64,000 bases of DNA from Paraspadella gotoi (taxonomy: Eukaryota > Animalia > Chaetognatha), in assembly GCA_051294375.1 (NCBI GenBank), contig CM119264.1, positions 20,933,636 to 20,997,635 of the forward strand. Reading direction: 5' to 3'. Every line of letters starts with the position of its first letter. Positions within the stretch are counted from its first letter, which is position 1. Below are positions 1-61,008 of the stretch, in pieces. Made by a program: the position numbers and the translations under genes. Under the pieces are notes generated by a model. The model saw only the letters and a list, made by a program, of their open reading frames with translations, was not told the DNA's origin and made no database searches.

Positions 1-370
1 AAATCTAGTTCTTTATTTTTTAGCAGATATAAAATTATTGCATAAAACATAAATTTCTATTTGAGATCAAAAAATTACTGAGGACAGAATGTGCGTTCCA
101 TATACGGACTTAATGGTCGGATAGCTTAAAAGTTATTAAAATAGAACTGACGGAGAAAACAATTATAATGGCTAATTTAAAATTATTTAACCCCAATTTA
201 ACAGTAACAAAAATAAAATTAATGAGCAAAGCAATTAGAATGCGTTTATCGATGTTCCTCGTAGTGGAGTTGTTGCGCTCATTTCCCGATCTTCATCGTT
301 GTCCAACTTAAACGGCTCCTGCGAACCGCTTCATTCGCTCCATTTAACCAGAGACCCGTTCCTCCGCTCC

Positions 371-1841
371 TTAATATCCGGCCATCTCGTTGAAGGTCTG
401 CTCCAGCTCGACGCAGATTTCCTGGTACTTTTCCTTCCAGTCGTTGAGGTCGGCCAGGAGGAGCTCCAACTCCTGCTGCTGCTTTGCTGCTTCTCGCTCC
501 GCTGCGGCGGCTTGGATCTCGGTGAACTTGAGGTTGAGGGTCAGGTCTCTGCGATGGGTAGGGAAAAAGGTAAGAATCAGGGTGGGCGAGACAGTTAAAC
601 AATTGAAAGGTAAAAAAAATATTTAAGACTGACCTAATCTTTTCCTCGTACTCCTCGTGCCGCTTGAGGGCGTTGGTCTCCGACAACTCGAGCGTCTTCA
701 TGTTCTGTCCGACCACGTTGAGTTGTTCCTCCAACTCTTGGATCTTTGCTTCGGCCTCGGACGCCTTCTCGTTGGTTCTGTCCAACTCGACTTGGGTCAT
801 GGACAGTTTCCTGAAGGAATTGTAGATTATTATCATTCGGGTAATTTAATCTCGAATACGATTATGGCTGTGCCTTTGATAAATTGTGTACGATGTAAAA
901 ATTAACTACTAAACAATAACTTAGTTTTGAAATGATGTTAATTAACCCACTTTACCCCCTAAATCTTCCGCTCCTACCTGGAGGCTTCCTCTGCGTTTCT
1001 CTGGGAGACGAGGGCAACCTCTTGGGCAACGGCGATCTTCCTGTCCAGACTGTCGATGGCCTCGTCGTTAACGAAGCCTTTGGCCTCGAGGATCTTCCTC
1101 TGGACTTCGACTTCCTCGGCTGCTTTGGCGGCCTCGGCCAGTTTGGTCGTCTCGACTGTTTGATGGTTAAGTTACTTGAATGTAGCAAGGTTTTATTGTA
1201 GTATAGAGCTGAAGCTTTGAATTTTAACTGTTGAAGTGTAAACTAACTTACCAGTGAGTCTGCTGTCGGATCTTTGGATGTCGTCGTCGAGCAGAGAGCT
1301 GCGTCGCTGCAGCGCAGAGACCTCGTCCTCATTGACCAGCTGCTGCTTCTCTGCTTCCTCCAAGGAGACGCCGGCGGCGAGAAGTTTTTCTGTGGTGTCG
1401 TCGAGGTCGTTCTCAACCTGACAGCGAAGTTGACACCGTTTTTACTTGTTGTCTTGGCCTTCATGAGATTATCCGTTCATCCTAATATTGTTACACCACT
1501 CGACTTTAAATATTTCCTTGTTTAAAAGTATCCTACCTTCATGATTTTTTTGCCCAGCTGCAAGATTTCGTCATCGCGAGATTTGAGAATTTTGTTCAAC
1601 TCGACGACTCGATTCTAAAGGTTTAAAAAATCGTTTGTTTCATTATTTAATTAATACTTTTCGACATCTTAGAAAACTTTATTTATTTTTCAACGCCATA
1701 TCACATATATTTCTACATCCAAATAACCTGCAATGCCTTCTCCATGTCCGCCGACGCCTCCTTGGCGTTTTTCAAGCTGAGCATCTTCTTGCGGATGGCC
1801 TCCATGGTGTTGGAAGCGGTTTCCTTGGCCTTCGACGACAT
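371..1841 (-). CDS. TPM: Tropomyosin, long (284-aa) type with optional 12-aa N-terminal extension; exons 1841-1728, 1614-1537, 1417-1252, 1155-978, 810-634, 548-371
   Basis: Six GT-AG exons splice in frame (891 nt). The product reads (MSSKAKETASNT)MEAIRKKM...ASRKLSMTQVELDR...LEEQLNVVGQNMKTLE...ELEQTFNEMAGY*, exactly 284 aa from the second Met, with typical tropomyosin termini. Confidence 0.93.
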
Positions 1842-3185: not shown

Positions 3186-3424
3186 TATATGATTAAATAA
3201 AATTCGTTGTGAAACAAAAATCATTTTGCCCAAATTTTATAAATTATAAATTAAAATTAGTTTCTAAAAAAAAAAAAATTTATTGTTAAAAAATAAACTA
3301 ATGAGCAGACGCAGCCCCTGAAAAAAAAAAAAGAAATAAAAACCCGATGTTGCGATAGCAAAATGATAACATGCACGAATGCGATGCCTAATTTTACGAG
3401 TTCAATCCTATTTCAATTTTTTTT

Positions 3425-4722
3425 AGTCGGATCTGCTTATCAGCAGATCCCGACTCTATAATTCACTTTGTCGGTCCGTCGGTCCGCCCCCTCAATATTG
3501 TCGGGCACTAACTTATATCATGTCAGAACATCGAATTATGATAAATTATGCCAAAAAAATGATGTCCGTCTGTCTGTCCGTCCGTCCGTCCGTCCGTCCG
3601 TCCGTCCGTCCGTCCGTCCGTCCGTCCGTCCGTCCGTCCGTTCGTCCCACCTTAGCAAAAAACACCAATTACTCATGATTGGCTGGATGGATTTGAATAA
3701 AATTTTGTGTGTGGATAGGAAAGTGTGTGATTAAGCTGGATATGAAGTTTCCGATGGAATCGTCAGAGTGGAAATGAGTTTAAATGGAAAAAAAAAAAAA
3801 AAATATTCACTATTTGAACACCAATTGCTCATGAGTGGATGGGCTGATTGACCTGGAATTTTGTATGTGGGGAGGAAAGTGTGTGTTTGAACAGGAAATC
3901 AAGTTTCGATGGAATAGTTTTGAGTGGAAATGAGTTTAAATGGAAAAAAAAAAAAAAAACCTGTTTTACCAATTGATTATGCTTTTTTTTCTTTTCATAT
4001 TAAATGTATATGCAGGATGTATTATTAAATCAAATAATTAATCAGTTAATTAATCAATTAGTCAATTAATTAATCAATAATTAATTAATCAGTCAATCAA
4101 TCCGTCCATCCGTTCCACCTTAGCAAAAAGCTCCAATAACTCGTGATTGGCTGGTTGGATTGGAATGAAATTTTGTGTGTGGGTAGGAAAGTGTGTGATG
4201 AAGCTGGATATAAAGTTTCGACGGAATAGTGTGAGTGGATATGAGTTTAAATGGAAAAAACATAAGTCGCATTTACTAAAATCTTTTTATTTATTTTAAC
4301 CAATAAGTACTCTAATTAATCATAATTGGATGGATAGATTGAGTTCAAATTTTTGTGTGTGGGTAGGAAAATGTGTGACGAAGCTTGATATAAAGTTTCG
4401 GTACGAAATGGAAATGAGTTTAAATGAAAAAAATATGAGTCATATTTATTTGACTCTTTTTACTTATTTTAACCCATAATATATTGAGATAAAATTTTGT
4501 TAGCAGGAAGGAAAGTTTGTGGAGAAGCTAGATATAAAGTTTTGACGGAATTGTGCCAGTGGAAATGATTTTAAATGGAAAAAATATAAGTCACATTTAT
4601 TTTATTTTAAGGACATTGATGATGATAAGCTGTATTTTAATTTATAATTAATTATTAAAATTAATTAATTAATTAATTAATTAATTTTCGTAGGCAGATC
4701 CGACATTGTTTGCTCAAACTTG
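3425..4722 (+). mobile_element. Helentron-associated non-autonomous element (HINE/DINE-1/pearl-like), family A
   Basis: Sits in a T-run with no TSD. 5' subTIR GTCGGATCTGC with adjacent inverted copy, (GTCC)n microsatellite, central ~130-bp tandem repeats, 3' subTIR GCAGATCCGAC and terminal hairpin GTTTGCTCAAAC. Confidence 0.8.
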
Positions 4723-9781: not shown

Positions 9782-10889
9782 CCTACTATTTACAGGGAAG
9801 GGATTCAAAACTTAGAAAATCCGTATCACTTCTTTTTTTTTTACTTTATGACGTATTGTGTGCATTAAAATAAAAAAATTGAATTGAAGATGCTTAACCA
9901 GACCTTGTTCTAACTATTATTGCAATGCGATAAGTACTGTTGCAAAAACGACACCTGCCACAGCACCCAAAAGAATCACAGCTGCTCTTCATAAACGCTT
10001 TTGAAAGATTGAGCCATAGCTCAGAAACGGTTTAAAAGTAATATGGGTGCCCCAATTTCAAACGCCCTACTTAGCAAAGTTAAAAAGAATTTGATATGGA
10101 TAATATCAAGACGGAAAATCCTTCAGTCAAAAATTAAAATGTTGCTGCATCTGAAAACAATAAAGCCCTTTGTTACAGCCATACATATTAAACCCAAGGG
10201 TATTGCATCTTTATAAATGTCAAGAAATGGAATCTCAGTACTCTATAGTAGACTGCAGCAATGGTTTTTAACCCAGTAGCAAAAATACATTTTATTATTA
10301 TTTATTTCTAATAACCTTCTTAATTATATAACATACTACTAGAGAATGTTAACCTATTTTAGTAGTGGTTTTAAGCTCAAATCCGGCGCGGAGCAAATTC
10401 AATCAACGTTGCATTCTTCTCGGTACTGTTCGAGTATGAAAAAAATAAAAGCTTTATCAGAGAGAGAAAGCATCAGTGATTATTTTGATGTATTATAAAA
10501 TAAAATTCAATAATTTTTTGCCATTGAAATCTAATGGTAAAGTTTTGATTCACTACCCTGTACAATAGAGTGGAGCACTGGGGAACATAAATTTTATTTG
10601 AGTGATCAAACAAGGATATTTAGACGTAAGATAGTATGATTAAGGAGTACAAAAAATATTTTGCTTATATTGTTTGGGGAACAGTATCATTAATTACAAT
10701 ATATTTATAGTAATATTCTTTTAAAATCATAAATTTTCAAAATAATTTTTTTTTAAATTTTTATTAAAGATTCTGATTCTTCACAAAAAGTTAGATCAAA
10801 AATATAAAATATGTTATTAAAAATTTCAATGTCTTGAGCCTCAAAAATGGAAAAAAGAGGTCAAATTCTTGACTTTTTTACACTTTGTA

Positions 10890-11996: not shown

Positions 11997-12555
11997 TATG
12001 GTGGACTAAAATCCACCAACCGTTCATCAGCGGCCATTGGTGCCGGAGGCAAGTCATTCGCCTCCCAACCCAAAGGTCCGGGGTTCTAGCCCGGTGGCTG
12101 CCTAGCATTTAAGAGGGACGGGGCGCTTAACCCGCCTGTAACATGGTGTTACAGCCTGATCCGAAGCTCAGGGACTGCTTATATTGAATGGTTCTGTCAT
12201 TAACACATATCAATAATTACTGTCTCTTCATTGGTGAGCCCGACTTCCGAACACAACAGCAACAACAACCCTTTCAGGCGACATGCCTCAACCTGGCGAT
12301 GCACTTTCCGCCCACAATATATCAGGCGATAGGCCTCAACTTGATGACGAACTTTCCACCAACAACAACAATTCACTGAAGAGACGCAACAGACTTCTCC
12401 CTACGGGAGGGGGGATGTATGGTGGACTAAAATCTACCAACCGTTCATCAGCGGCCATTGGTGCCGGAGGCAAGTCATTCGCCTCCCAACCCAAAGGTCC
12501 GGGGTTCTAGCCCGGTGGCTGCCTAGCAGTTAAGAGGGACGGGGCGCTTAACCCG
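11997..12555 (+). mobile_element. Miniature LTR element (TRIM/retrozyme-like), family A; 5' LTR 11997-12230, 3' LTR 12418-12555 (truncated)
   Basis: Direct repeats; PBS TGGTGAGCCCGAC at 12232; PPT GGGAGGGGGGA at 12405-12415; twister-like motif at 12105-12178; homologous to 27837-28485. Confidence 0.85.
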
Positions 12556-12926
12556 GTGAATCCAAAACTGTTTTTAAAATTAAGAAAATATGATTTTATA
12601 AGGATATTACTATAAAGAAAATTCAATTAATGATAATGTTATGCATTTTTTTTGAAAAAGAGTTTAATTATTTTTTATTACATATACAAAGGCTGCAAAA
12701 AAATATTGTTTCATCGCTCAATCTTTTCATTACTCCACCCTACTGTACAATGTACAATGTACATGTACATAGACAATTAGTATTTTCGTAATTTGGTTTT
12801 ATAAAGGAGTAACGGTGTATATTACAATATTCAGTATGCTATATACTTTATTACAAAAATAGGTTCACTATTCTTTTCTAGATAATTCATGTATGTTACC
12901 TTGTAACACGAGAAATCTCTTCCCAG

Positions 12927-15900: not shown

Positions 15901-17332
15901 ATAAACTAAAGTCAACAATAAAAATGAAAAGGACAAAATGGTTAAGAGAGAATAGTTTATGGAATATTGGATATTTGGGAAAATTTGAGATATTATGGCA
16001 ACAGCCGGGTTGCCTGTGATGCCCATTGAGATGGGGCATCTCACTGTTGGCTTTGGGGGCTTCCGACCCTCAGTGACTCTTGTCACTGGCGCGGTTACCC
16101 TAGGACGGTCTCACTTTGCCAACGCAGAGGGAAGTCATTAGGACTGTGGATGGAACACTAATCCTTGGATGGTGTGTTCCCCCTCTGAGCCAATGGATTT
16201 GGCTGAAGGATGGTGGACGTGAGGCAGTGTGAATATACCGCCACAATATTTTATTATTTGCATTGGTAATGATCAAAATCATAAATAGGAGACAAAAAAG
16301 GAAAAACAATAACATGGTTAATCAACACAGTAGAAAATATCAAGAATGGATACGAGTGGGGTCAGGCCTGGTCAAACACGACCGAACGTGTCGTCTTGGA
16401 AGTTGATTTTGATGTCGTTCTTTTTATCATTACTGTATACAGGAAAAGTTTCGTCGTCGTTGTCTTTTTATATTTCGCCATTGCGTTCATTTGAGTCATT
16501 TAAACCCCTGAATCGTTTCGCATAAAAAAGTCGAAGAAAAGAAAGTTTTCATTTATCTTTACCAAATAACGTAACCACCGGTCCACGCCCCCAATCAGTG
16601 CACCCCCTAACGAAGGCCTTCGTCTCGGTCGCACCCAACATCCCCGCGACGCACTGGCGCCTCCTGGCTGAGCGGATGCACGTAAAGAGCGTCGCCCACG
16701 ACGACGTGATGGCGCAGAAACCGGAAGTAAAGGCGAAGAGATTGATCGAATCTTGGATGAAATACAACCCCGGCACGACCGAGCGACAGGTGAGGTGTGG
16801 GGAAAACCAAAAAGGGACGGTTATGGGAACGGGGGACATGAGTGACGCCTGGCGTGTGAGGCATCTCCTAACAGCTGGCACTCAGGGTTTCAACCTGCAA
16901 TGACCACCCCATGTCACTGGCGTGTTTATGCCAACACCATCACACCTTAACCAGAGTGACCATGAGGGGATTGAACCCGGACCTCATGGTTGGCGAACGA
17001 GTACTTAGCAGTCCAAGCCAATGGGAAGAGCTGAGATTCACTAAGCTATGCGGGAGGCGAATTTAGGATTCGCCACACTCAACTATTTTTTTTTATGTCA
17101 AGAATACATTAAATAAACAAAAACCCATGATGCGTGTGTTAGTACATACCTTAACTTAACATAACTTATGTAAAATAGAAAACCCACGAGCGCCTTAACC
17201 GAACGATGCTCTTCCGATGTGACATTCGTTGTTCCAATCTTTGACTTTTTCCGTCACCTTCCGACTCGTTAATTTTCCAGCCCAACGGGTTTTTGAGTTG
17301 CGAGGTTATGCACCCCGCTCCGATTCGTTCCG

Positions 17333-18898: not shown

Positions 18899-19620
18899 GT
18901 ACGCACGTCTTTTGTTTTTCTTGTCTACACACAGAAGAAGGTTGATATTACAGTGTGTCCCAATGGTACTGTCTGTTAAGAAAAGCATACTGTTCCTATA
19001 CCAGATCGAAAAACTTTAATTCATTATAATGAATATGCGCACAAGTATGGACCATTTTATAGGATACCTAAATTTTAAAAATTAAACAAAGCAAACTCCT
19101 GTAGTTATTACATGAAGCAATTGGTAAAAAAAAACTTTCAGTGATTTTTAAAACAAAGTTTTAAATAATATATTTTTTATTATTTATCAAATATTTTTTA
19201 TAATACTGTTTAAATAATGTTTTAAATATTTTCTTTAGAAAGGACAGTCAGAAACTACCTCATATTTTTAGCTCCAGAGCTTTTATAATGCTGTAATCCT
19301 TATTTTTAAAATTATAAACTTACCCTGTTCATATTAATTTTTTAATTGATTTAATAATAATTTATTGAATAAATAGCAACCATTTTGTTATGGCTTAATG
19401 ATTCAATAGCTCACAACTTCAAATAATAAAATTTAAATATCAAATTAATTAGCATATTTTTATAAATTTTTTTTGTTTATTTCTTTTTATTAATGCACTT
19501 ATTTTATACAAATTAAAAATTAAATAATTCATATCTATTTAAAATATTTTTTTACATAAATTTTGTAATGTGTAAAAGTTAACCGACAGTATTGTACTTC
19601 CTGCCAAGTTATCACGACGG

Positions 19621-19836
19621 TGAGGAGACAGTAATAATTGTTATATGTTAGTGACAGAACCGTTAAATATAAGCAGTCCCTGAACTTCGGATCAGGCTGT
19701 AACACCGTGTTACAGGCGGGTTAAGCGCCCCGTCCCTCTTAACTGCTAGGCGGCCACCGGGCTAGAACCCCGGACCTTTGGGTTGGGAGGCACCAATGGC
19801 CGCTGATGAACGGTTGGTGGATTTTAGTCCACCATA
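19621..19836 (-). mobile_element. Solo LTR family A with twister-like motif (19673-19746)
   Basis: Reverse complement of the family A LTR; 4-bp TSD ACGG at 19617-19620 and 19837-19840. Confidence 0.85.
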
Positions 19837-20065
19837 ACGGTAATATTTTGCAACGTTAACAGTTAACGGTTATTAACGGTTAAAAATAATTTTAACTTAA
19901 CCGTTAATATATTTATTTTAACGGTTAAATTTGGTTAATTTTCAAGTATGATTTTTGTTATTTTCTGTTATGAAAACTTTGATTTTTTAAGAGAAAAGTT
20001 TTTTTTTTCTGTCTTCTCTTATTCTCCTCTCCCTTTCTCACTATATTTTCCCCCTGTCTCTTCTA

Positions 20066-21395: not shown

Positions 21396-22654
21396 CAAGT
21401 TTGAGCAAACAATGTCGGATCTGCCTACGAAAATTAATTAATTAATTAATCGATTAATTAATCAATTAATTAATTATTTTAATAATTAATTATAAATTTA
21501 TATACAGCTTATCATCATCGATGTCCTTAAAATAAAGTAAATGTGACTTATATTTTTTCCATTTAAAATCATTTCCACTGGCACAACTCCGTCAAAACTT
21601 TATATCTAGCTTCTTCACAAACTTTCCTTCCTGCTCACAAAATTTCATCTCAATCTATTATGGGTTAAAATAAGTAAAAAGAGTCAAGTAAATGTGACTC
21701 ATATTTTTTTTATTTAAACTCATTTCCATTCGTACCGAAACTTTATATCAAGCTTCGTCACACATTTTCCTACCCACACACAAAATTTGAACTCAATCTA
21801 TCCATCCAATTATGATTAATTAGAGTATTTATTGGTGAAAATAAGTAAAAAGATTTTAGTAAATGCGACTTATGTTTTTTCCATTTAAACTCATATCCAC
21901 TCACACTATTCCGTCAAAACTTTATATCCAGCTTCATCACATATGTTCCTACCCATACACAAAATTTCACTCCGATCCAATCAGCCAATCACGAGTTATT
22001 GGGGCTTTTTGCTAAGGTGGAACGGATGGACGGATTGATTGACTGATTAATTAATTAGTGATTAATTAAATGACTAATTGATTAATTAACTGATTAATTA
22101 TTTGATTTATTAATACATCCTGCATATACATTTAATATAAAAGGAAAAAAAATCATAATCAATTAGTTAAACAGGTTTTTTGTTTTTTTTTATTTAAACT
22201 CATTTCCACTCAAACGATTCCACCGAAACTTGGTTTCCTGTTCAATCACACACTTTCCTACAAAATTCCAGGTCAATCGCCCCATCCACTCATGAGCAAT
22301 TGGTGTTTAAATAGTGAATTATATTTTTTTGTTTTTTCCATTTAAACTCATTTCCACTCGGACGATTCCATAGAAACTTTATATCCAGCTCAATCACACA
22401 ATTCCCTACCCATACACAAAATTTCACTCAAATCCATCCATCCATCCAATCACGAGTAATTGGTGTTTTTTGCTAAGGTGTGATGGACGGACGGACGGAC
22501 GGACGGACAGACGCACATCATTTTTTTGCATAATTTATCATAATTAGATGTTCTGACATGATATAAGTTAGTGCCCGACAATATTGAGGGGGCGGACCGA
22601 CGGACCAACAAATGGAATTATAGAGTCGGGATCTGCTGATAAGCAGATCCGACT
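21396..22654 (-). mobile_element. HINE family A copy
   Basis: Reverse complement of 3425-4722; absent from the paralogous site at ~45267; no TSD. Confidence 0.85.
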
Positions 22655-23046
22655 AAAAACCCGTTGTTTGTAAACAAATAAAATTTGCTTTCACTTATCT
22701 ATAAACGCAACAAAAAGAAAGTCTTAACACAATATTCAATGGTCATGGATTATAAAAGACTAACAAGAGAAAACATGCTTTCAAGAAACTAACAACTATA
22801 AAAATAATGAGGAAGAGAAATAGAAAAAGAAAAAGCAAAAGCGAAAGAAAGAAAGAGAAAGAGAAAACAAAATATACAGAATTAGAATTACATTGTGCTT
22901 TTTATTTTATTATCTTTTTTCATATTTTTATTATGCTATGAGCCAAAAGAAAGATTTATTATAATGCTTTATTTCATTAGCTGATGGGTAGATTCAAGAT
23001 AGATTTTTCAAACCAATTTTTTTAATTTATCAACTATAATGTGTAC

Positions 23047-24791: not shown

Positions 24792-25750
24792 CAAGTTTGA
24801 GCAAACAGTGTCGGATCTGCCTACAATAATTAAGCGGTAATCAGCTAATCAGATGATAAATGACAATATTTTTAAAAAAAAATTTTAACTCGCATCATTT
24901 TTTCAACTCACATCATTTTTTCAACTTGCATCATTTTTTCCACTCACATCATTTTTTCAACTCACATCATTTTTTCAACTCACATCATTATTTCAATTCG
25001 CTTCATTTTTTCTACTTGCATCATTTTTTTTTAACTCTGCATTCTTTTTTTACTTGCATTCATTTTTTTTAACTTGCATCTTTTATTTTTTTCACTTGCA
25101 TAATTTTTTCAACTTGCTTAATTTTTTGAATTGCATCATTTTTTACATTAATTAAATAATTAATTAATTAAACATTTATTAGTAATTATAAATATATAAA
25201 GATTCAATAAATGTGACTTATGTTTTCTGCATTTAAACTCATTTCCACTGCAGGATTCCGTCAAAACTTTGTATCTAGCTTCTTACACACTTCCTACCCG
25301 CACACAAAATTTCATTCTCAATCTATTAATTCAATTATGATTAATTCGAGCAATTATGGGTTAAAATAAGTAAAAAGATTCAAGTAAATGTGACGCATAT
25401 TTTTTTTATTTAAACTCATTTCCACTCGCACGTTTCCACCAAAACTTTATCTCAAGCTTCGTCACACCACTTTCCTACTCACACACCAAAATTTCAACTC
25501 AATATATCCATCCAATTATTGATTATTAGAGTATTATTGGTTAAAATAAGTAAAAATATTTTAGTAAATGCGACTTATGTTTTTTCCATTTAAACTCATT
25601 TGCACTCGCACGATTCCATCGAATCTTTTGTCCAGCTTTATCACACACTTTCCTACCCACACATAAATTTTATTCCAATCCACCACCAATCACGAGTTAT
25701 TGGAGCTTTTTCTAAGGTGAAACAGACGGATACGGACAGACGGACGGACC
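24792..25750 (-). mobile_element. HINE family A copy, 5'-truncated, with ~19-bp AACTCACATCATTTTTTC tandem array
   Basis: 3' hairpin and subTIR, ~130-bp repeats, remnant GACG microsatellite. Confidence 0.8.
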
Positions 25751-26570: not shown

Positions 26571-27836
26571 CTTTTAAATATTTATTAATATATAACAAAT
26601 GACAAAAATTTTTTTTAAAAAAATTTATTTTAAGAACGGATTCTTATAGAGCTTGAAAAAGTTAAATGAAAGTAGTACTACATTTTTTTAAAATATTTGA
26701 CAAGAAATTTGGTTAAAATAAAAAAAAAACGTTAAAAAATCATCATCATCATCATCATTGTGCTGAATTTTATAGTTTTTTAAAATTTTACCAATAAAAC
26801 AAAAAAATTTTAAAAATTTGTATTAATAACCTTTATCTAACTTTTAAAGCTCTATCAGAATTTATCAAAAAAAATTGACAAATTCAAAAAAAAATTTTAA
26901 CTTTTATATAGTAATAAATTATCTTTAAAGGCTTCCGTGCGCTTATTATGAAATATTTTTTTAAAATATATTTTTATTTTCATATTCTCTAACAGTCACT
27001 TTACCATTATTTATTTTGAGAGAACTTCTAGTTTTCAACCTGTTCCGGCCTAATACATACCGGGAAAGTCTATAGGGCACCTTTATGTCATGAATATAAT
27101 TTTAAAGTTATATTTTTTCTTTATTCTACTTTTTAATTGTTTCTTTTTTGAATATTTTTTATCTTTTTTTTATACAATGAAGGTCATCAGTTGGGAACCT
27201 ATACCCTTCATGGATTTGGCTCTTTAATCCCAATATCCAGGTATAGGCGAGCCATCACCAATGGTGATCCTTCATTGTTGCTTATCTTATATTTTAAATG
27301 TATATCTTGAATGTTTATCTGAAACAGACCAAAGCCCTGGCTTCACAGCATCATTAATTTTAGAGAAATTTTATTAAGGTTTTGTAATAATTTGTAATTT
27401 GTAAATAAATAAAATAAGTTAAATAATTAGTTTAATAATAAGTTAATAATTAAGGGTATGTTAATGTAAAGTTAACATTAAGTTAATTGTAAAGTTAAAA
27501 AGTTTAAAAAATAAATTAAATCAGAGAGAGAAGAGTCCCGTTTCAGAGCAAAATCTGGAATCTGGAATCCGCAAAAGAGAGAAAGAGACGAACGTCGATA
27601 TCTCCTATATAAAAGAGCTTCTGAGTTACAGTCGTCTGGACTTTAAAGCTCCTCCCTTATCCACCGAGATCCTGTCCTCAGGATACGCTCCTGACGACGC
27701 CGGACTCGCGTCATACAAAATCTTAACCTCCGTCATCTTGTATTCTTCATTTACTGAGTCGCGCTACAAATAATCTCAAGTTGACTTTGAATGCTCCATC
27801 TCTGCCACGCGGGACTTCATCCGGTATAGTGAAATG

Positions 27837-28485
27837 TATGGTGGACTAAAATCCACCAACCGTTCATCAGTGGCCATTGGTGCCGGAGGCAAGTCATTCG
27901 CCTCCCAACCCAAAGGTCCGGGGTTCTAGCCCGGTGGTCGTCTGGCAGTTAAGAGAGACAGGGCGCTTAACCCGCCTGTAACATGGTGTTACAGCCTGAT
28001 CCGAAGCTCAGGGACTGCTAAATTGAACGGTTCTGTCATTAACACTTATCAATAATTACTGTCTCTTCATTGGTGAGCCCGACTTCCGAACACAACAGCA
28101 ACAACAACACTTTCAGGCGACATGCCTGAACCTGGCGATGCACTTTCCGCCCACAACACATCAGGCGACATGCCTCAACTTGGTGACGAACTTTCCACCA
28201 ACAACAATTCACTGAAGAGACGCAACAGACTTCCCCTATGGGAGGGGGGATGTATGGTGGACTAAAATCCACCAACCGTTCATCAGCAGCCATTGGTGCG
28301 GAGGCAAGTCATTCGACTCCCAACCCAAAGGTCCTTGGTTCTAGCCCGGTGGTCGTCTGGTAGTTAAGAGGGACGGGGTGCTTAACCCGCCTGTAACATG
28401 GTGTTACAGCCTGATCCGAAGCTCAGGGACTGCTTATATTGAACGGTTCTGTCTTTATCACATAACAATAATTACTGTCTCTTCA
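27837..28485 (+). mobile_element. Complete miniature LTR element (TRIM/retrozyme-like), family A: LTR 27837-28069, internal 28070-28252, LTR 28253-28485
   Basis: 233-bp direct repeats ending in TCA; PBS TGGTGAGCCCGAC (28071); PPT at 28240-28250; 4-bp TSD AATG; no coding capacity. Confidence 0.9.
28360..28433 (+). ncRNA. Twister ribozyme, type P5 permutation (predicted cleavage 28383|28384); mutated twin at 27945-28018
   Basis: P5 GTAGT/ACTGC; P2 CCC/G(A)GG; conserved GA and U|AA; T2 GC/GC; P3 CTGTAACA/TGTTACAG; P4 CTGA/TCAG with loop TCCG-AAGC; T1 TCCG/CGGG. Confidence 0.8.
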
Positions 28486-29340
28486 AATGTAATCAAACGT
28501 CATACAAAAAAAATATGTTTTCTTATTAGACCAAACATAATTGAGGGCCATAGCATAATAATATTATTGGGAACTCCCACGAAGTCCGTTCTGGTCAGCG
28601 GTGAAACCAGGGTGGTACAGAAGATAAAGATAAAAATAACACCACCGCTCCGAAGATCCTGTTCTCAGGACAAGCAGGGCAGCAGGGCTGCATTCATTCT
28701 TAACGGTAGCCATCTTGGATTCTTCATTCACTGACCATGCTGTCTTACGCATCAATGCTATTATGTGCCACGCGGGATTTTAATAGAATTTTCATAAAGT
28801 ACTCAACTAATTGTCAAAGGATAAACATTAGGATCTCCTTATAACTCCGTTTTCTTTACGGCAAAACCAGAGTGGTACAGGTCCCCAAGAAAAGATAAAG
28901 ATCATACTCCTAGTCCCAAGCAGAGGACAGGTTTTCAACAATTATTTTATATTCCAAGAGATCATTTATGCATCGAAAAGAAATTGTATATTGGATCCCA
29001 TGCTTCCCTAGAATCGCCGGGGACAACAAATTTATTAGAGTTCCGTAGTGTTCCTTCGCGATTTAGATTGAGTTTTTTTTCTTGTCTATTGCTTATTACA
29101 GATACTGAAGGAAAATGTAAACACATCGGCTATTTAAACAAAAGAAAAACAATCACTGAATCCTATGCAACATGTCAGTTTCTGCAGCCATATGATACAA
29201 CAAACGCGGGGAGATGTCAGACGAGTTGGCGAGGCGACAGGTTTTCATGGCGCTGCAATATGTCCTCTTCGTTTTCCTTTCAATACTTTTCCACGAACCT
29301 AACCGTCGCTCTTTTTTATTAAGTCCAGTTGGCTCCAGAA

Positions 29341-31271: not shown

Positions 31272-32284
31272 ATGAGCGCAAATTCAGTCGGCAATAAAGA
31301 TTCGTCCACCCGTCTCATTTTAAGATGCCAACTCTTTCTTATCTTGTTTTGCACCCTCTTCACTGTTTGCATACATGCAGGACCAGGTATGTGCATTTTA
31401 CTTAATGATGTTTAGTTGAATTTATAAAAATACATTATACTGCAGAGGGCGAAAACCATCACTTCAAATCGGAGGTCATGGCGAACCCTCAACTAAAACT
31501 TCTTGTCAATAATCTCCTACAACAACGCTCACGACAAGCGGACAATTCGGACATTGACGAGGACGATAATCCAAAGAGCGAATCAGATCATGGGTCGCCC
31601 GAAGTCGTCGACGAAGCATTCCAGAACTCTAGTGAAGAAACAGATCTCACCCCGACAGCCAACTACAAGATGATAAACGCCAAAAAGATGATGAAAAAAT
31701 CTATTTCACCGGCGTCGAGCGGGGATTTCGACAAAAGACCGGATCCTTATGGATTTGCTGGCGGTCTGGGAAAGAGGGCGGATCTGTATGGGTTTGCTGG
31801 TGGACTTGGTAAGAGACCTGATTCCTATGGGTTTGCCGGAGGATTGGGGAAAAGGGCAGATCCTTATGGCTTTGAAGGGAGTCTTGGTAAAAGACCAGAT
31901 CCTTCCGGTTTTTCTGGAGGACTCGGAAAACGGCCAGATCCTTATGGATTTTCGGCAGGACTGGGGAAACGGCCAGATCCATATGGATTCGCTGGAGGAC
32001 TCGGGAAAAGGCCTGATCCATATGGGTTTGCTGGAGGACTGGGAAAAAGGCCTGATCCTTATGGGTTTGCTGGAGGACTAGGGAAAAGGCCTGATCCTTA
32101 TGGGTTTGCTGGAGGACTAGGGAAAAGGCCTGATCCTTATGGGTTTGCTGGAGGACTAGGGAAAAGGCCTGATCCTTATGGGTTTGCTGGTGGTTTGGGG
32201 AAACGAGCTGATCCCTACGCTTTTGCCGGAGGACTTGGAAAAAGAGTCGATCCTTATGGATTCTCAGGAGGATTAGGTAAATGA
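31272..32284 (+). CDS. Buccalin/allatostatin-A-type neuropeptide precursor, 317 aa; exons 31272-31386 and 31446-32284
   Basis: Hydrophobic signal segment LFLILFCTLFTVCIHA, acidic spacer, then 14 GK(R)-terminated 10-mers (PDPYGFAGGL x7 and variants), similar to Aplysia buccalin-type -FxGGL-amide peptides. Confidence 0.9.
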
Positions 32285-34496: not shown

Positions 34497-36819
34497 GAAG
34501 ACGGAGTTTTTTTTAATTCCTTAGAGGGAAACATTGATAAATAATGAATATTAAAAAATTCAGAATGAAATTGTAATATAGTTATAATAATATAAACGCA
34601 ACAGTTGTACCTTTGATCCCGTAGGCGGTTCATCTTCTTCTTTAACAATTTTCTTCATCGACTTTGAAGCCAGACTCTCGTGCAAAGAGAGAGAATTCGG
34701 CAAATACCTGTTAACAAAAATCAAATGTTAAAGTTAGACAAAATGAACGTTTATATAGTAGGAAGAGACAAATCTCGGGTCAATCAGGAAGAAAAAAAAA
34801 TATATATATAATTATATATATATATTAAGATTTATCTTTGGGAAACAATAATAACACAAAATTAGCAGGATTGTTTTTTTTTTCAGTAAAGCAAAATGTT
34901 TTTAAACAAGTTTGAGCAAACAATGTCGGATCTGCTAATCGTTAATCAGCTAATAAGATGATAAATCACAATATTTAAAAAAAAAAATTTTAACTCGCAT
35001 CATTTTTTCAACTTGCATCATTTTTTTCACTTACATCATTTTTTCAACTCACATCATTTTTTCAATTTGTATCATTTTTACAATTTGCATCATTTTTCAA
35101 CTTGCATCATTTTTTTAACTTGCATCATTTTTTTTAACTTGCATCATTTTTTTTAACTTGCATAATATTTTTAACGCACATAATTTTTTTAAATTGCATC
35201 ATTTTTTCACATTAATTAATTCATTAATTAATTGAAACATTTATTAGTAATCATAAATAATAAAGATTCAAGTAAATGTGACATATGTTTTTTTCCATAT
35301 AAACTCATTTCCACTGGCTTGATTCCGTCAAAACTATATCTTGCTTCTTCACACACTTTCCTACCCATACACAAAATTTCATCTCAATCTATTAATTCAA
35401 TTATGATTAATTCGAGTAATTATGGGTTAAAATAAGTAAAAAGATTCAAGTAAATGTGACTCATATTTTTTTCATTTAAACCCATTTCCACTCGCACGTT
35501 TCCGTCGAAATTTTATATCAAGCTTCGTCACACACTTTCCTACCCACACACAAAATTTCAACTCAATCTATCCTTCCAATTATGATTAATTAGAGTAATT
35601 ATTGGTTAAAATAAGTAAAAAGATTTTAGTAAATGTGACTTATGTTTTTTCCATTTAAACTCAATTCCACTTGCACGATTCCATCAAAACTTTATATCCA
35701 GCTTCATGACACACTTTCCTACCCACACATAAAATTTCATTCTAATCCAACCACCCAATCACGAGTTAATGGAGTTTTTTGCTAAGGTGGGACGGACGGA
35801 CGACGGACGGACGGACGGACGGACGGACGGACGGACGGACATCATTTTTTAAAAATAATTTTTCATAATTCGATGTTCTGACATGATGTAAGTGAATGCC
35901 CGACAAGATTGAGGGGGCGGTCAGACGGACCGACAAAGTGAATTATAGAGTCGGGATCTGCTTTCAGCAGATCCGACTAAAAAGGTCATGGTCAAATATC
36001 ATTACCACTTTTCACCCGATTTGTCTCTACTTAAATTAACTTCTTCGCTACTTCCTACAATAACTGATACTCTACCAAAAAGCGGAACTTTCAGATTAAC
36101 CTGCATCCCCTCTTTAGCGCATTCCTCACGGTTCCCAATATCTTTTTCAGTCCTTCGTTTTCGAGTTTAAGGAGATCGTTTTCTCTTTTAACCGCTTCTA
36201 ACGATTTTGCTGAAATAAACAAAATAATTTTTAATTATTGTCACAGGCTAATTAGGTTTTGAAAATCCAGGCTTTTTACCATACTGATACTCCGATTGAA
36301 TTCCTGCCTCATTTCGTTTCTTATGTATATCTTACTTTTTATTTTTTATTTTCAGCCTAGACTGTTTTAGTGTACATACTTAGCCAAGAAAAACATTAGA
36401 AAAGCCCAGTTGATATCGAAATTCCTGCCCATCCTCTTATCCCTCCCAGGTCGCACCCTTGTTTTCCTTCTCCAATGCCTTCGTCGCCACGTTCGCCATC
36501 GTCGCCGCGAGACTTCCGCTTTGCTCCCTCCGTTTCTGGACCATCTGCTTGAAGCGGCTCTCTCGAACCGGGGACTCTTTCTGCGAGGAACGAAATAATA
36601 AAAATAATAAATAAATAAAAATAATAATAAAAAACGAAATAATAAAAACCATGGCAAGCTGTGGTTCGACTTTCAGCAAACAATATCTAAAACTATGTAA
36701 CTATAGATTAGTGATAAAGCGAAATATGGTTGTTTTAACAAAGATTCGACTTTATGACTCCTTGCCTTTGATTTTTGCTTGACCGTCTGAACGGACGGTA
36801 ATGTTTTTCTTGACGACAT
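32923..36819 (-). CDS. Coiled-coil protein with C-terminal death domain; exons include 36580-36457, 36209-36101, 34707-34611, 34519-34329, 34213-34074, 33974-33934, 33847-33787, 33698-33471, 33352-33265, 33049-32923 (5' exons tentative)
   Basis: Ten phase-compatible GT-AG exons; heptads LEAVKRENDLLKLENEGLK and LEELETRVTQL; death-fold pattern MWELVGAQLGV..AAHLVLIEW...ATVDLFIRLL. Confidence 0.7.
34907..35978 (-). mobile_element. HINE family A copy (intronic)
   Basis: Both termini, GACG microsatellite, and ~130-bp and ~19-bp internal arrays present. Confidence 0.85.
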
Positions 36820-39001: not shown

Positions 39002-49510
<10,509 letters not shown>

Positions 49511-53293: not shown

Positions 53294-54604
53294 CTCTCTC
53301 TCGGTCATCGTGATTTGTGGAGAAAATGGGAAAAAAATTTTTCCGAGTTCAAAATCCCCCACAAACGAGGACTATAACGAACTCTTTTCTTTCTTTTTTT
53401 CTTTTTCATTTGATTTTTTTTTCATTTGTTTCCATTGATTCAATTTTCATATTTAGTAAAACGTTTTTAAACTAACGTTGACTTTTTATGTAATCAAGCT
53501 AATTTAATTAAATTGATTTCATCAGGCGACGACGGAATCGAATCAGGCCCTTGTCCTGAAATGCAGCACTTGACGGAATTTGACGCCCGGTCTTTCGCAG
53601 GCACCTGGCACATCCTTTCATTCAAGCCCAATATGTTTGAGTCAAACAGTCTCAAATGCCGGTAACTGATAAGGCACTGATGCCTATTACTAGTAGCCTT
53701 CATTAGGACTTGCTCAAAGTAGCAGTTATTGTACTGCGATATGCGATACAATTTTACTTTTTTTATCAGGAGAATCGAAGTTGCGATGAAGGAATCGGTC
53801 AAAGGCAATGTCGTCGCCATCACATCTTTCGACACGCAGGAAGGAGAAGAGACGAAGACGACGAGAGAAGCGAAGTGGGAGCCGAGCCAAGGGGGACTCT
53901 TGAAAACCTCTCAGGTGGGCGGGGGGCGGGTACCCAGGAACTCGTTGCAAGGGGGTTAGATGAATTAAAGAAACATTCAAGATAACGAATTTGGGATTAA
54001 AATCCACCAATCGTTCATCAGCGGCCATTGGTGCCGTAGGCAAGTCATTCGCCTCCCAACCCAAAGGTCCGGGGTTCTAGCCCGGTGGCCGCCTTGCAGT
54101 TAAGAAGGATGGGGCGCTTAACCCGGCTGTAACACGGTGTTACAGCCTGATCCGAAGCTCAGGGACTGCTTATATTGAACGGTTCTGTCACTAACACATA
54201 ACAATTATTACTGTCTCTTCCCTATGTTTATTTTCGACCGCAAGAAGACAGAAAAAAAATTGTGAAATTAATAATTAAGTTTTAATAGATTGTATTGTCA
54301 AATAATAATATTTAGTATAGTTGATATTGAGTGTAGCAAAAAACTGAGCATTGAAAATCAAAATTCCCACATCCACCAGGAAATCTTTGGCTTCTCTCTC
54401 GACGTACCCCTCAAGATCCTGTGGACGGACTATTCGAAATCGGGCGTCGGGTGGTGCTGTGTTGAGTCCTTCGGGTCTCACGCCGACGCCGCGTGGATCT
54501 GGAGTCGGACACCGACGCTTGACGACGAGACGATGGGGAAGATGAGGAAGATATTGGAGGATCGAGGGGTGCACGCTGAAGACATGGTGGACGGGGAGTG
54601 TTGA
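52949..54604 (+). CDS. Apolipoprotein D-like lipocalin; exons 52949-53021, 53526-53661, 53770-53914, 54380-54604
   Basis: Signal peptide, GPCP..FDARSFAGTWH (GxW motif), TDY motif, AWIWSRTPTL, terminal Cys; splice phases compatible. Confidence 0.88.
53993..54220 (+). mobile_element. Family A LTR copy (5' end degraded) in lipocalin intron
   Basis: Near-identical to the 27837-28069 body; perfect GCGGCCA/TGGCCGC acceptor-like stem. Confidence 0.8.
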
Positions 54605-58595: not shown

Positions 58596-60302
58596 AGTCG
58601 ACTCTATAATTCACTTTGTCGGGCACTAACTTATATCATGTCAGAACATCGAATTATGATAAATTATGCAAAAAAAATGATGTCCGTCCGTCCGTCTGTC
58701 TGTCCGTCCGACCGTCCGTCCGTCCCACCTTAGCAAAAAATACCCATTACTCGTGATTGGAAGGATGGATTTGAATAAAATTTTGTGTGTGGGTAGGGAA
58801 GTGTGTGATTGAGCTGGATATGAAGTTTCGATGGAATCGTCAGAGTGGAAATGAGTTTAAATGGAAAAAACAAAAAAATATATTTCACTTTTTGAACACC
58901 AATTGCTCATGAGTGAATGCGGCGATTGACCTGGAATTTTGTATGTGGGTAGGAAAGTGTGTGATTGAACAGGAAATCAAGTTTCGATGGAATCGTTTGA
59001 GTGGAAATGAGTTTAAATGGAAAAAAACAAAAAACCTGTTTCACAAATTGATTATGCTTCTTTTTCTTTTTATATTATATTATATATATATATTATTATA
59101 TGTATTAATAAATTAAATAATTAATCAGTTAATTAATCAATTAGTCAATTAATTAATCAATAATTAATTAATCAGTCAATCAATCCGTCCATCCGTCCTA
59201 CCTTAGCCAAAAGCTCCAATAACTCGTGATTACCTGGTTGGATTGGAATGAAATTTTGTGTGTGGGTAGGAAAGTGTGCGATAAAGCTGGATATAAAGTT
59301 TCGATGGAATCGTGTGAGTGGAAATAAGTTTAAATGGAAAAAACATAAGTCGCATTTACTAAAATATTTTTACTTATTCTAACCAATAAATACTCTAAAT
59401 AATCATAATTGGATGGATAGATTGAGTACAAATTTTGTGTGTGGGTAGGAAAGTGTGTGATGAAGCTTGATATAAAGTTTCGTTACGAGTGGAAATGAGT
59501 TTAAATGAAAAAAATATGAGTCACATTTATTTGAATCTTTTTACTTATTTTAACCCATAATAGATTGAGATGAAATTTTGTGAGCGGGTAGGAAAGTGTG
59601 TGAAGAAGCTAGATATAAAGTTTTTACGGAATTGTACCAGTGGAAATGAGTTTAAATGGAAAAAACATAAGTCACATTTACTTGAATCTTTATTATTTAT
59701 GATTACTAATAAATGTTTTAAAAATAATGTGAAAAAATGATTCAATTTAAAAAAAATTATGCAAGTTGAAAAAATGATGCAAGGTGAAAAAATCTTAAAA
59801 GCATAAGGATCGTCGCAATTGCAGAGAGAGAAAGAGAGAGAGAGATAAAAACGAAATAAAAACATGATGTTGCGATAGCAAAATGATAACATGCACAAAT
59901 GCCATGCTTAAATTTATGAGTTCAATCCTAATTCACTTTTTTTTTTTAATAAAAACGCAGAGAGAGAGAGAGAGCGGCAGCAGCAGAGGCAGCCAGAAAA
60001 AAATTAAGAAATCAAAAGGCAGCAGTAGAAGCAGCAGGAGAAAAGAGCAGAGCCAGCTGCAGACTCGTTTTTTTTCCTAGCACTAAAAATGGCGCAAGTT
60101 AAAAAAATGATGCAAGTTGAAAAAATGATGCGAATTGTAAAAATTATGCAAATTGAAAAAATGATGTGAATTGAAAAAATGATGTGAGTGGAAAAAATGA
60201 TGCGAGTTGAAAAAATGATGTGAGTTAAAAAAAATTTTAATTTTAATCTTCTAAAACCGCTTAATTATTGTAGGCAGATCCGACATTGTTTGCTCAAACT
60301 TG
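58596..60302 (+). mobile_element. HINE family A copy with nested family B fragment (~59790-60080)
   Basis: Homologous to 3425-4722; 5' hairpin collapsed to AGTCGACT; 3' end intact. Confidence 0.8.
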
Positions 60303-60524
60303 TTTTTGTCTTAACAAACGAGCAACCAACTATAGGAAAATTATAATTTATATGCATTTTTAACGTAAGTGGTACAGACCGACGGACAGACATGCCGACC
60401 GACCGACCGACTAAAAACTAAAAACCAACTAAAAACCAGTAACTTATGAAATTATATTAGGAGACCACAGACAGGCATTAACATAAAGAGAGATTTTCGC
60501 GGTGGGTTAAAAAAAAGAGGATTC

Positions 60525-60761
60525 TGTGGAAGACGATGCCTCGAGCAGTTTACCGTCCGTTGCACACAAGGTTCCGAACTTCGGATCGGGCTGTAGTCCG
60601 ACACTACAGGTGGGTTAGACCACCCGTCCCGCTTTTACTTGTGTGAATCAGCATGGCCCGAACCCGAGTCCTTTGGGTTGGGAGGAGCTCGTGCTACCCC
60701 CGGCGCCATAGGTGCTGCGGATTCTCGGACGAGTAGCAGGGTATGAAATACTACCGCTACA
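60525..60761 (-). mobile_element. Solo LTR family B with tRNA-like head and twister ribozyme (60563-60645)
   Basis: TG...CA termini, 4-bp TSD ATTC, 237 bp; same fold as family A with compensatory changes. Confidence 0.85.
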
Positions 60762-61008
60762 ATTCAATCATTTTAAAACATGGGAGAAAAGATTTTTTTC
60801 CCTTTGCGCGCGTCGGTATAGTGAATGCACTAAATGTCGAAATGTCTAAAAGAATAAATTTCGGATTCCAATCAAATTTAATTGACATAATTTCTCTGTT
60901 TTTTAAGTAGTCAAGCAAACAGACTACAATTGCTAATAAACATTTCTTCAATCTGAATGATTTTATTACTCTTTTGTAAAACACGCTGGGCAATTCAACA
61001 GTCAACAC

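Follow-up and report, generated by a model that had tools for sequence, protein, structure and literature searches.

The feature at positions 60525 to 60761 of the window (the whole 64-kb stretch of DNA that was analysed) is a 237-nt solo long terminal repeat (LTR) on the minus strand, which belongs to a family that we call B. Read from 60761 to 60525, the LTR opens with TG and closes with CA, and the letters ATTC flank it on either side. Its parts are listed here.

60525 to 60761, minus strand: family B solo LTR, 237 nt, TG...CA, delimited by its ends, by a step in contig depth and by contig pieces starting or ending at 60525 or 60761
60521 to 60524, no strand: left copy of the target-site duplication (TSD), ATTC, 4 bp, from comparison of the flanks
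60762 to 60765, no strand: right copy of the TSD, ATTC, 4 bp, from comparison of the flanks
60650 to 60720, minus strand: tRNA-like stretch with an A-box-like motif (60708-60698) and a B-box-like motif (60664-60654), a predicted internal Pol III promoter
60563 to 60645, minus strand: type-P5 twister fold with P5, a bulged 3-bp P2, GA, T1, the predicted cut between U60617 and A60616, T2, P3, P4 and L4, from alignment, descriptor and parse
60618 to 60623, minus strand: 6-nt segment in the place of helix P1, self-complementary at two of its six positions in this copy

The sequence-only reading of this DNA had recognized an LTR from the TG...CA ends and the TSD. Both were found, and the identification is reinforced by sharp edges in contig depth and by relatives that carry a primer-binding site (PBS), a polypurine tract (PPT) and paired LTRs. 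The region was found in nine public runs of one organism, in every case as contigs, and the depth analysis, in which the contigs were placed on the LTR, covers four of these runs. In run X1, the summed contig depth was 1.1-3.2 × 10^5 inside the LTR (60530 to 60745) and about 110 in the right flank; the corresponding values in run X2 were 3.2-6.2 × 10^5 and 178-220. The step at the LTR edges is thus about a thousandfold, and many contig pieces start or stop at 60525 or 60761. Because the depth inside the LTR is far above that of the flank and pieces end at the LTR edges, we conclude that family B is dispersed and comprises about a thousand copies or more; this number is rough, since summed contig depth is no true copy number. 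No contig joined the two flanks across an empty site at 60525-60761 in the four runs, two of which lacked coverage of the flank. Among the contig variants listed, the copy in the window departs from the family majority at no fewer than eight sites, three of them (60699, 60658 and 60654) in the tRNA-like stretch. The copy is therefore a drifted member of family B, the drift affecting the promoter boxes and the palindrome described below. The tRNA-like stretch, the palindrome that replaces a normal P1 and the drift of this copy are features beyond those of the sequence-only reading. Folding of the whole LTR was unremarkable (z −1.58).

The DNA around the element is AT-rich animal DNA with microsatellites. 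A second kind of dispersed repeat in the window is AT-rich and 1-2 kb long (3420-4660, 21460-22660, 24800-25630, 34900-35980 and 58600-60420); it has internal subrepeats of 18 nt and 150-180 nt, occurs in both orientations and is of very high copy number by contig depth. The window also contains an open frame at 31409-32284 in which a DPYGFAGGLGKR-type unit is repeated about 14 times, an allatostatin-A/buccalin-like neuropeptide precursor, and one or more divergent tropomyosin exons (279-845, minus strand; Pfam PF00261). Both genes point to an invertebrate as the source; the single close match with a name spans 33% of the query, too little for assignment to a phylum.

Ten LTR copies of this kind lie in the 64-kb window: six of family A, one of family B, two of family C and one of family D. 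The relatives of the family B copy are as follows.

27837 to 28485, plus strand: complete family A element with LTR 27837-28069, PBS 28071-28083, PPT 28240-28250 and LTR 28253-28485; ends TA...CA; TSD AATG
11997 to 12555, plus strand: family A element with 5′ LTR, PBS at 12232, PPT 12405-12415 and a partial 3′ LTR; predicted cut sites 421 nt apart
19621 to 19836, minus strand: family A solo LTR with TSD CCGT, a small deletion in the tRNA-like stretch and a G-U intermediate in T2
53994 to 54220, plus strand: family A LTR that lacks its 5′ end; T2 broken
48180 to 48430, plus strand: family C solo LTR with TSD CTCC and a twister with an 8-nt palindromic P1 segment; predicted cut at U48324
15994 to 16245, minus strand: family C solo LTR with TSD ATAT and the same kind of twister; predicted cut at U16097
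16796 to 17077, minus strand: family D LTR-like copy, TGTGG...CCACA, with a clear B box and a 4-bp P2

The complete family A element is 649 nt long and has a non-coding interior; its PBS begins one base past the 5′ LTR, its two LTRs are alike at 219 of 234 positions, and its predicted cut sites are 415 nt apart. In the second family A element, the 3′ LTR breaks off 6 nt past the predicted cut site, and beyond 12555-12556 it runs into an AT-rich repeat also present at 10680-10749. The PBS of family A agrees in 13 of 14 letters with the tRNA-Trp-type PBS of Gypsy-32_NVi and Helenus-2_SyJa. The PBS, PPT and paired LTRs were seen in family A only, family B being represented in the window by the solo LTR. 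TSDs of 4 bp flank five of the six insertions of which both ends were seen, namely the family B copy, the family A insertions at 27837-28485 and 19621-19836, and both family C copies; none was found for the family D copy at 16796-17077. That copy has an 8-nt self-complementary P1 segment (with four G-U pairs), decayed L4, T1 and T2, and a T-run near its 3′ end.

Several details of the LTR ends were noted. The TSDs of the two family A insertions (27833-27836 with 28486-28489, and 19837-19840 with 19617-19620) are perfect only if the element starts with TA, which suggests that family A has TA...CA ends that arise by trimming of two bases at integration. The family A 3′ LTR reads TG-TA after the PPT, although the integrated end would be the TA, two bases inside the TG. 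The family C LTRs end in CCAAA and CCATA, whereas CCACA would mirror the TGTGG start, and the observed ends are probably decayed forms of CCACA. Family C has an additional strong hairpin 3′ of the twister (48378-48410), and a hairpin lies at the very 5′ end of the LTR in all four families (60761-60736, 27837-27860, 48180-48203 and 17077-17055). Pattern scans for relatives gave no match in viral contigs. Thirteen pattern matches in metagenome contigs had neither the full fold nor BLAST similarity and were taken as chance.

The tRNA-like stretch sits 5′ of the ribozyme in all four families and has A-box-like and B-box-like motifs in each. The B box reads GGTTC in families A, B and D and is a variant in C; the A box matches TRGCY exactly in C and D and with one mismatch in A and B. 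With relaxed settings, ARAGORN called tRNA-Gly(CCC) at this stretch in four of the five family A LTRs tested and a tRNA in D; it made no call for C and gave spurious calls as well, and with default settings it found no tRNA in the window. The sequence CCATTGG directly precedes the A-box-like motif in A, C and D. About 140-150 nt, including the twister, come after the B box, and a T-run follows the ribozyme in D and in one C copy. We rejected the argument that a sense strand free of T4 runs points to Pol III transcription, for such a run was also lacking in 20% of shuffles of the full family A element and in 74% of shuffles of the family B LTR. Depth over the tRNA-like stretch (60651-60705) exceeds that of the rest of the LTR, most clearly in run X9, in which very deep contigs match this stretch alone and then continue into other sequence. 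The tRNA-like head of the family B LTR may also be part of a different abundant repeat.

A tRNA-like head followed by a ribozyme raises the question of whether the 237-nt unit could be a SINE that ends in a ribozyme and is mobilized by a LINE or a Penelope-like element. Family B was seen only as a single unit, and twisters are known in RTE-type LINEs (PMC8501958). We consider this interpretation very improbable. The unit has fixed ends, TG...CA termini, TSDs of a constant 4 bp and no tail; about 40 nt precede the tRNA-like part, and the unit ends elsewhere than at the cut site. Furthermore, the homologous family A has direct LTR pairs with PBS and PPT.

The closest known counterparts of the element itself are the Helenus TRIMs (TRIMp3; Kojima 2024, PMC10886601). 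Like the elements in the window, these are non-coding elements of less than 1 kb with two LTRs, a PBS of the Gypsy type and a PPT, with tRNA-like A and B boxes in the LTR, a 4-bp TSD in animals, many solo LTRs and several families per genome. Of these features, we found two LTRs, the short non-coding interior, the PBS and the PPT in family A, the A and B boxes, and the 4-bp TSD in five of six insertions. Pol III transcription from the Helenus LTR is likewise a prediction in PMC10886601. The arrangement of the LTR differs: most of the animal Helenus LTRs examined in the supplement have their tRNA-like part close to the 3′ end, usually with a T-run and CA after it, whereas here the twister follows the B box. 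The words 'twister' and 'self-cleav' do not occur in the main text of PMC10886601, and inspection by eye of the animal Helenus LTRs in parts 5 and 7 of the 11 parts of its supplement revealed no twister. A search of the whole Helenus sequence file with six L4 motifs gave no convincing twister either, with the reservation that line breaks in the file can hide matches.

On the minus strand, the strands of the ribozyme follow one another in the order P5 5′, linker, P2 3′, GA, T1 3′, the 6-nt segment, U60617/A60616-A (the slash marks the predicted cut), P2 5′, T2, P3, P4 with L4, and P5 3′, and this is the order of the type-P5 twister permutation (PMC5408937). In the family B copy, P5 is formed by 60645-60638 with 60570-60563, P3 by 60609-60603 with 60597-60591, P4 by 60589-60586 with 60577-60574 and T2 by 60611-60610 with 60579-60578; GA lies at 60628-60627. 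Every motif that the sequence-only reading quoted is present at its place on the minus strand. All 20 modelled pairs are intact in this copy, including all pairs of the two pseudoknots, and of the conserved core, U/AA, GA (with its G as the predicted general base) and the U...AA of L4 are present. T2 has two pairs. T1 had been described as a helix of TCCG with CGGG; the helix exists, but not with four pairs, since it consists of three Watson-Crick pairs and an A-A, and the U of TCCG pairs inside L4 in crystal structures (PMC5408937).

Type-P5 twisters (Roth et al. 2014, via PMC5408937) share with families A-D the strand order, T1, T2, P2, P3, P4, P5, U/AA, GA and L4. The families differ from them in having a 6-8-nt palindrome for the P1 hairpin and in scoring under the Rfam thresholds, and families A and B also differ in P2, which has three pairs and a bulge where four pairs are usual, and in the P4 pair adjoining L4. 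This pair is A-U in A and B and G-C in C and D; a G-C at this position has been described as essentially invariant (PMC5408937). A scan of the whole window with Rfam gave no match at the gathering score, and in E-value mode there was no twister match for family B or A. One family C copy gave a partial match to twister-P1 (20.8 bits, gathering score 67.2, E 0.045). Because the gathering score was not reached, we file the fold as a twister variant and not as a member of the Rfam twister family. No hammerhead was matched in the Rfam scans of the window and the LTRs.

To judge how often such a fold arises by chance, we used a strict type-P5 descriptor, a tightened version made after a looser one, since dropped, had given 1.5 chance matches per shuffle. 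The strict descriptor has six matches in the window, all within these LTRs. Local shuffling of the window, repeated 300 times, gave 11 matches (0.037 per window), and 5000 shuffles of the family B LTR gave none. Parsing of families A, B, C and D showed GA and U/AA to be identical in nine of nine copies. Minimum-energy folds of A and B contain a competing hairpin that ties up the strands of T1 and P2.

The sequence-only reading had also proposed compensatory covariation between families A and B in P5, P3, P4 and T2. In an alignment of five family A copies with the family B copy, 116 of 120 cells pair, and changes on both sides were seen in four of the 20 pairs (one in T2, two in P3 and one in P4). 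Four such changes were reached in one of 500 column shuffles, and the slid controls gave none. The proposal thus holds for T2, P3 and P4. It fails for P5, which has no base-for-base alignment between the two families and is a replaced helix rather than a covarying one. Because all four paired changes come from the single family B row, they represent one lineage split and not four independent samples. For the same reason, the weight that had been placed on T2 alone as strong evidence of selection is too great: the exchange of A-U for G-C between two families is one event.

The T2 change is nevertheless a trait of the family, since the four T2 sites (60611, 60610, 60579 and 60578) carry no other letter in the best 40 of the 62 rows of contig variants. 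The family A copy at 19.7 kb has a G-U intermediate in T2. Within the ribozyme, the variants listed for run X1 include a single common minority variant, at 60601 in the P3 loop (48%); listed minority variants at paired or core sites stay below 3%, and the sites 60573, 60621 and 60622, at which the majority differs from this copy, all lie outside P2, T1, T2, P3 and P4. By our own mapping, the T2 pair altered in family B corresponds to the G13-C31 pair of the rice twister, in which every single change of G13 reduced activity to less than 20% (PMC5113685); the A-U double mutant is absent from the available text of that paper.

Further paired changes came from the other families. The middle pair of T1 is C-G in A and B and G-C in C, and the second pair of P4 is U-A in A, C-G in B, G-C in C and A-U in D. 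A covariance model built from A and B only finds both C copies (E 5e-5 and 8.5e-4) and D (E 0.0035), the E-values being rough; the two C copies and the decayed D copy, at 16959-16867, are its best matches outside A and B. The case for covariation rests on the four families together and is stronger than that from A against B.

One might argue that the fold is an inactive relic or a structural RNA domain, and that common ancestry or selection on hairpins, rather than on catalysis, accounts for the paired changes. Activity is a prediction here, Rfam misses the fold, and P2 and the closing pair of P4 are atypical. Single copies also have broken pairs: one T1 pair in the family A element at 27837-28485 and one T2 pair in the family A copy at 53994-54220, with a ruined L4 in D; counted over copies, a pseudoknot pair is broken in two of the five complete family A copies and in D. 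Such decay is to be expected of single genomic copies. The stability of plain hairpins is insufficient as an explanation because the unpaired GA and U/AA are constant and pseudoknots of only 2-3 bp change in pairs between families. We therefore regard the relic interpretation as improbable. We are highly confident that 60525-60761 is an LTR with a twister fold kept across diverged families, and the twisters of these families are probably catalytically active.

In the interval from T1 to the cut site, which in a type-P5 twister has to accommodate the P1 hairpin, the LTRs have only 6 or 8 nt. As a monomer, the family B copy could form at most one P1 pair closed by a tetraloop, and a full P1 could form only in trans, between palindromic copies. 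The P1 segment is fully self-complementary in all six family A LTRs (one with additional G-U pairs), in both C copies and in the D copy (with four G-U pairs). With the majority letters at 60621 and 60622 (97-99% of the depth in run X1), the family B segment at 60618-60623 is likewise self-complementary at six of six positions, with two G-U pairs. The palindromes fall into three unrelated sequences, one in A and B, one in C and one in D. The chance that such a segment is self-complementary, with G-U allowed, is about 0.14 per independent family and about 0.003 for three; the figure was computed partly after the fact, and the idea of the palindrome was recorded before family D was found. The B and D palindromes would be incomplete without their G-U pairs; A is related to B, and the D copy has decayed. 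As a control, we examined 17 viral loci that match a P3/P5-type twister pattern, some of them not clearly twisters; their segment is 14-30 nt long and is fully self-complementary in none. Several of the viral contigs have apparent P3/P5-type twisters with ordinary P1 hairpins of 6-8 bp.

When the energies of nested helices were compared, a strand-swapped dimer was favored over two monomers by 7-13 kcal/mol in all four A and C copies tested, and was disfavored by 1.4 kcal/mol for the copy at 60525-60761; these values count nested helices only. Having lost its palindrome, the latter copy would cut only as a monomer without P1, if at all.

One alternative is that a twister cutting as a monomer takes over from a T-run terminator in forming the 3′ end of Pol III transcripts. 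The element would then replicate as an ordinary LTR element with a terminal repeat of roughly 90 nt, and the palindrome would be a kissing loop for pairing or packaging of the RNA, or would be incidental. Twisters without P1 are active, P1 defects are tolerated in 1,948 natural examples, and P1 belongs to the twister consensus although it is dispensable for cutting (PMC5408937, PMC11662667). The monomer may therefore cut well, and the palindrome need not serve catalysis. In most of the Helenus LTRs examined in the supplement of PMC10886601, a T-run lies just 3′ of the B box, which is the place of the ribozyme here. In folds of family A, the palindrome sits in a hairpin loop. It resembles there the dimer-initiation loops of retroviruses.

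Other observations weigh against a monomer that terminates the transcript. The two LTR copies are identical, so that a fast monomer would cut the 5′ LTR as well and remove the repeat; some delay would be needed. The T-run that follows the ribozyme in D and one C copy is present anyway. The palindrome occupies precisely the interval from T1 to the cut site, in which P1 would be restored by pairing in trans. On these grounds we think the monomer scheme rather unlikely. That pairing through the palindrome matters is slightly more probable than its opposite.

There is a precedent for this arrangement in another ribozyme. Minimal hammerheads of Penelope-like elements, in which stem III is a short palindrome, are considered to cleave in dimeric form (Lünse et al., via PMC6765202). 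As in families A-D, a core helix has shrunk to a palindrome, and terminal repeats provide two copies per transcript, as they would here. The ribozyme and the class of element are different, and dimer cleavage was tested there, whereas it is inferred from sequence here. The twister T-variants of Perere-3 (Liu et al. 2021, PMC8501958) also have a weak or missing P1 inside a retrotransposon, where they act in processing of the RNA end; those are type-P1 twisters that head a non-LTR element at its 5′ end and obtain P1 from the target site, unlike the type-P5 twister in an LTR described here. Neither 'dimer' nor 'type-P5' occurs in the available text of PMC8501958.

The combination of a ribozyme with LTRs recalls the plant LTR retrozymes (Cervera et al. 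2016, PMC4918200). Like family A, these are non-coding LTR elements with a 4-bp TSD, PBS and PPT, with one ribozyme per LTR, a cut-to-cut unit without the repeat, and solo LTRs; in family A the self-cleavage is predicted. The marks seen in family A are a predicted ribozyme in each LTR, the PBS, the PPT, the 4-bp TSD and the lack of an open reading frame. The plant elements are larger, have type III hammerheads and release units of about 700 nt, compared with a twister and 415-421 nt in family A, and their circles have been demonstrated, whereas ours are proposed. Because the ribozyme has a twister fold and is not a type III hammerhead, we regard A-D as elements that would work like retrozymes but do not file them as members. 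According to a 2020 review, no promoter was seen in plant LTR retrozymes, and animal retrozymes lack LTRs, PBS and PPT; a 2026 preprint places LTR retrozymes primarily in plants.

On balance, the interpretation that we favor, with moderate confidence, is that the feature at 60525-60761 is a solo LTR of a high-copy, non-coding TRIM of the Helenus kind that carries a twister with a palindrome, that is, an LTR retrozyme likely to cut best as paired copies. One could envision the following cycle. Pol III would start at the tRNA-like stretch of the 5′ LTR, and the transcript would cross the interior into the 3′ LTR, so that it would contain two identical ribozymes. The P1 segments of the two ribozymes would then pair and produce a strand-swapped double twister, in which the 5′ and 3′ halves of each core would come from different copies. 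Cutting at both U/A sites would release a unit of about 415-421 nt without a terminal repeat. Lacking that repeat, the unit would need to be circularized before reverse transcription from the PBS; it might be closed into a circle by ligation and serve as template for the reverse transcriptase of an autonomous Gypsy element, a partner that the PBS and the 4-bp TSD point to. If two copies are needed, cutting would wait for the 3′ LTR, and solo LTRs would be mostly quiet. A circular-template model has been proposed for the plant LTR retrozymes (PMC4918200), and we give a circular intermediate here a little less than an even chance. Folding of the family A unit in circular form gave a value some 2.7 standard deviations below 25 shuffles, a difference too weak to use.

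Helenus TRIMs, plant hammerhead LTR retrozymes (PMC4918200) and twisters heading RTE-type LINEs (PMC8501958) are known already. We found neither an animal TRIM whose LTR contains a twister nor a twister with a palindromic P1 in open PMC and bioRxiv full text, and the available portions of PMC8782182, PMC10085705 and PMC5680766 contain nothing on twister dimers or on twisters in LTRs. Ten LTR copies in a 64-kb stretch carry a motif that Rfam misses.

Helenus and the retrozymes, treated separately in the literature examined, are brought together by an animal TRIM with a twister in its LTR, and this placement would assign the ribozyme a definite role in LTR retrotransposition. The palindromic P1 leads to a sharp prediction, cleavage as a dimer that depends on concentration, and it bears on the so far unexplained fact that the P1 of twisters is conserved yet dispensable. 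More tentatively, and as something we hold somewhat less probable than a circular intermediate, animals may have true LTR retrozymes: an old and diversified group of Pol III-driven mini LTR elements, whose twister would have dispensed with a P1 of its own and would cut as a strand-swapped double twister between the two LTRs, so that transcripts with two LTRs would be excised and circularized while thousands of solo LTRs would be largely silent. If this is true, it would be the first natural twister that cleaves as a dimer, and the hammerhead and the twister would have reached the same palindrome solution independently.
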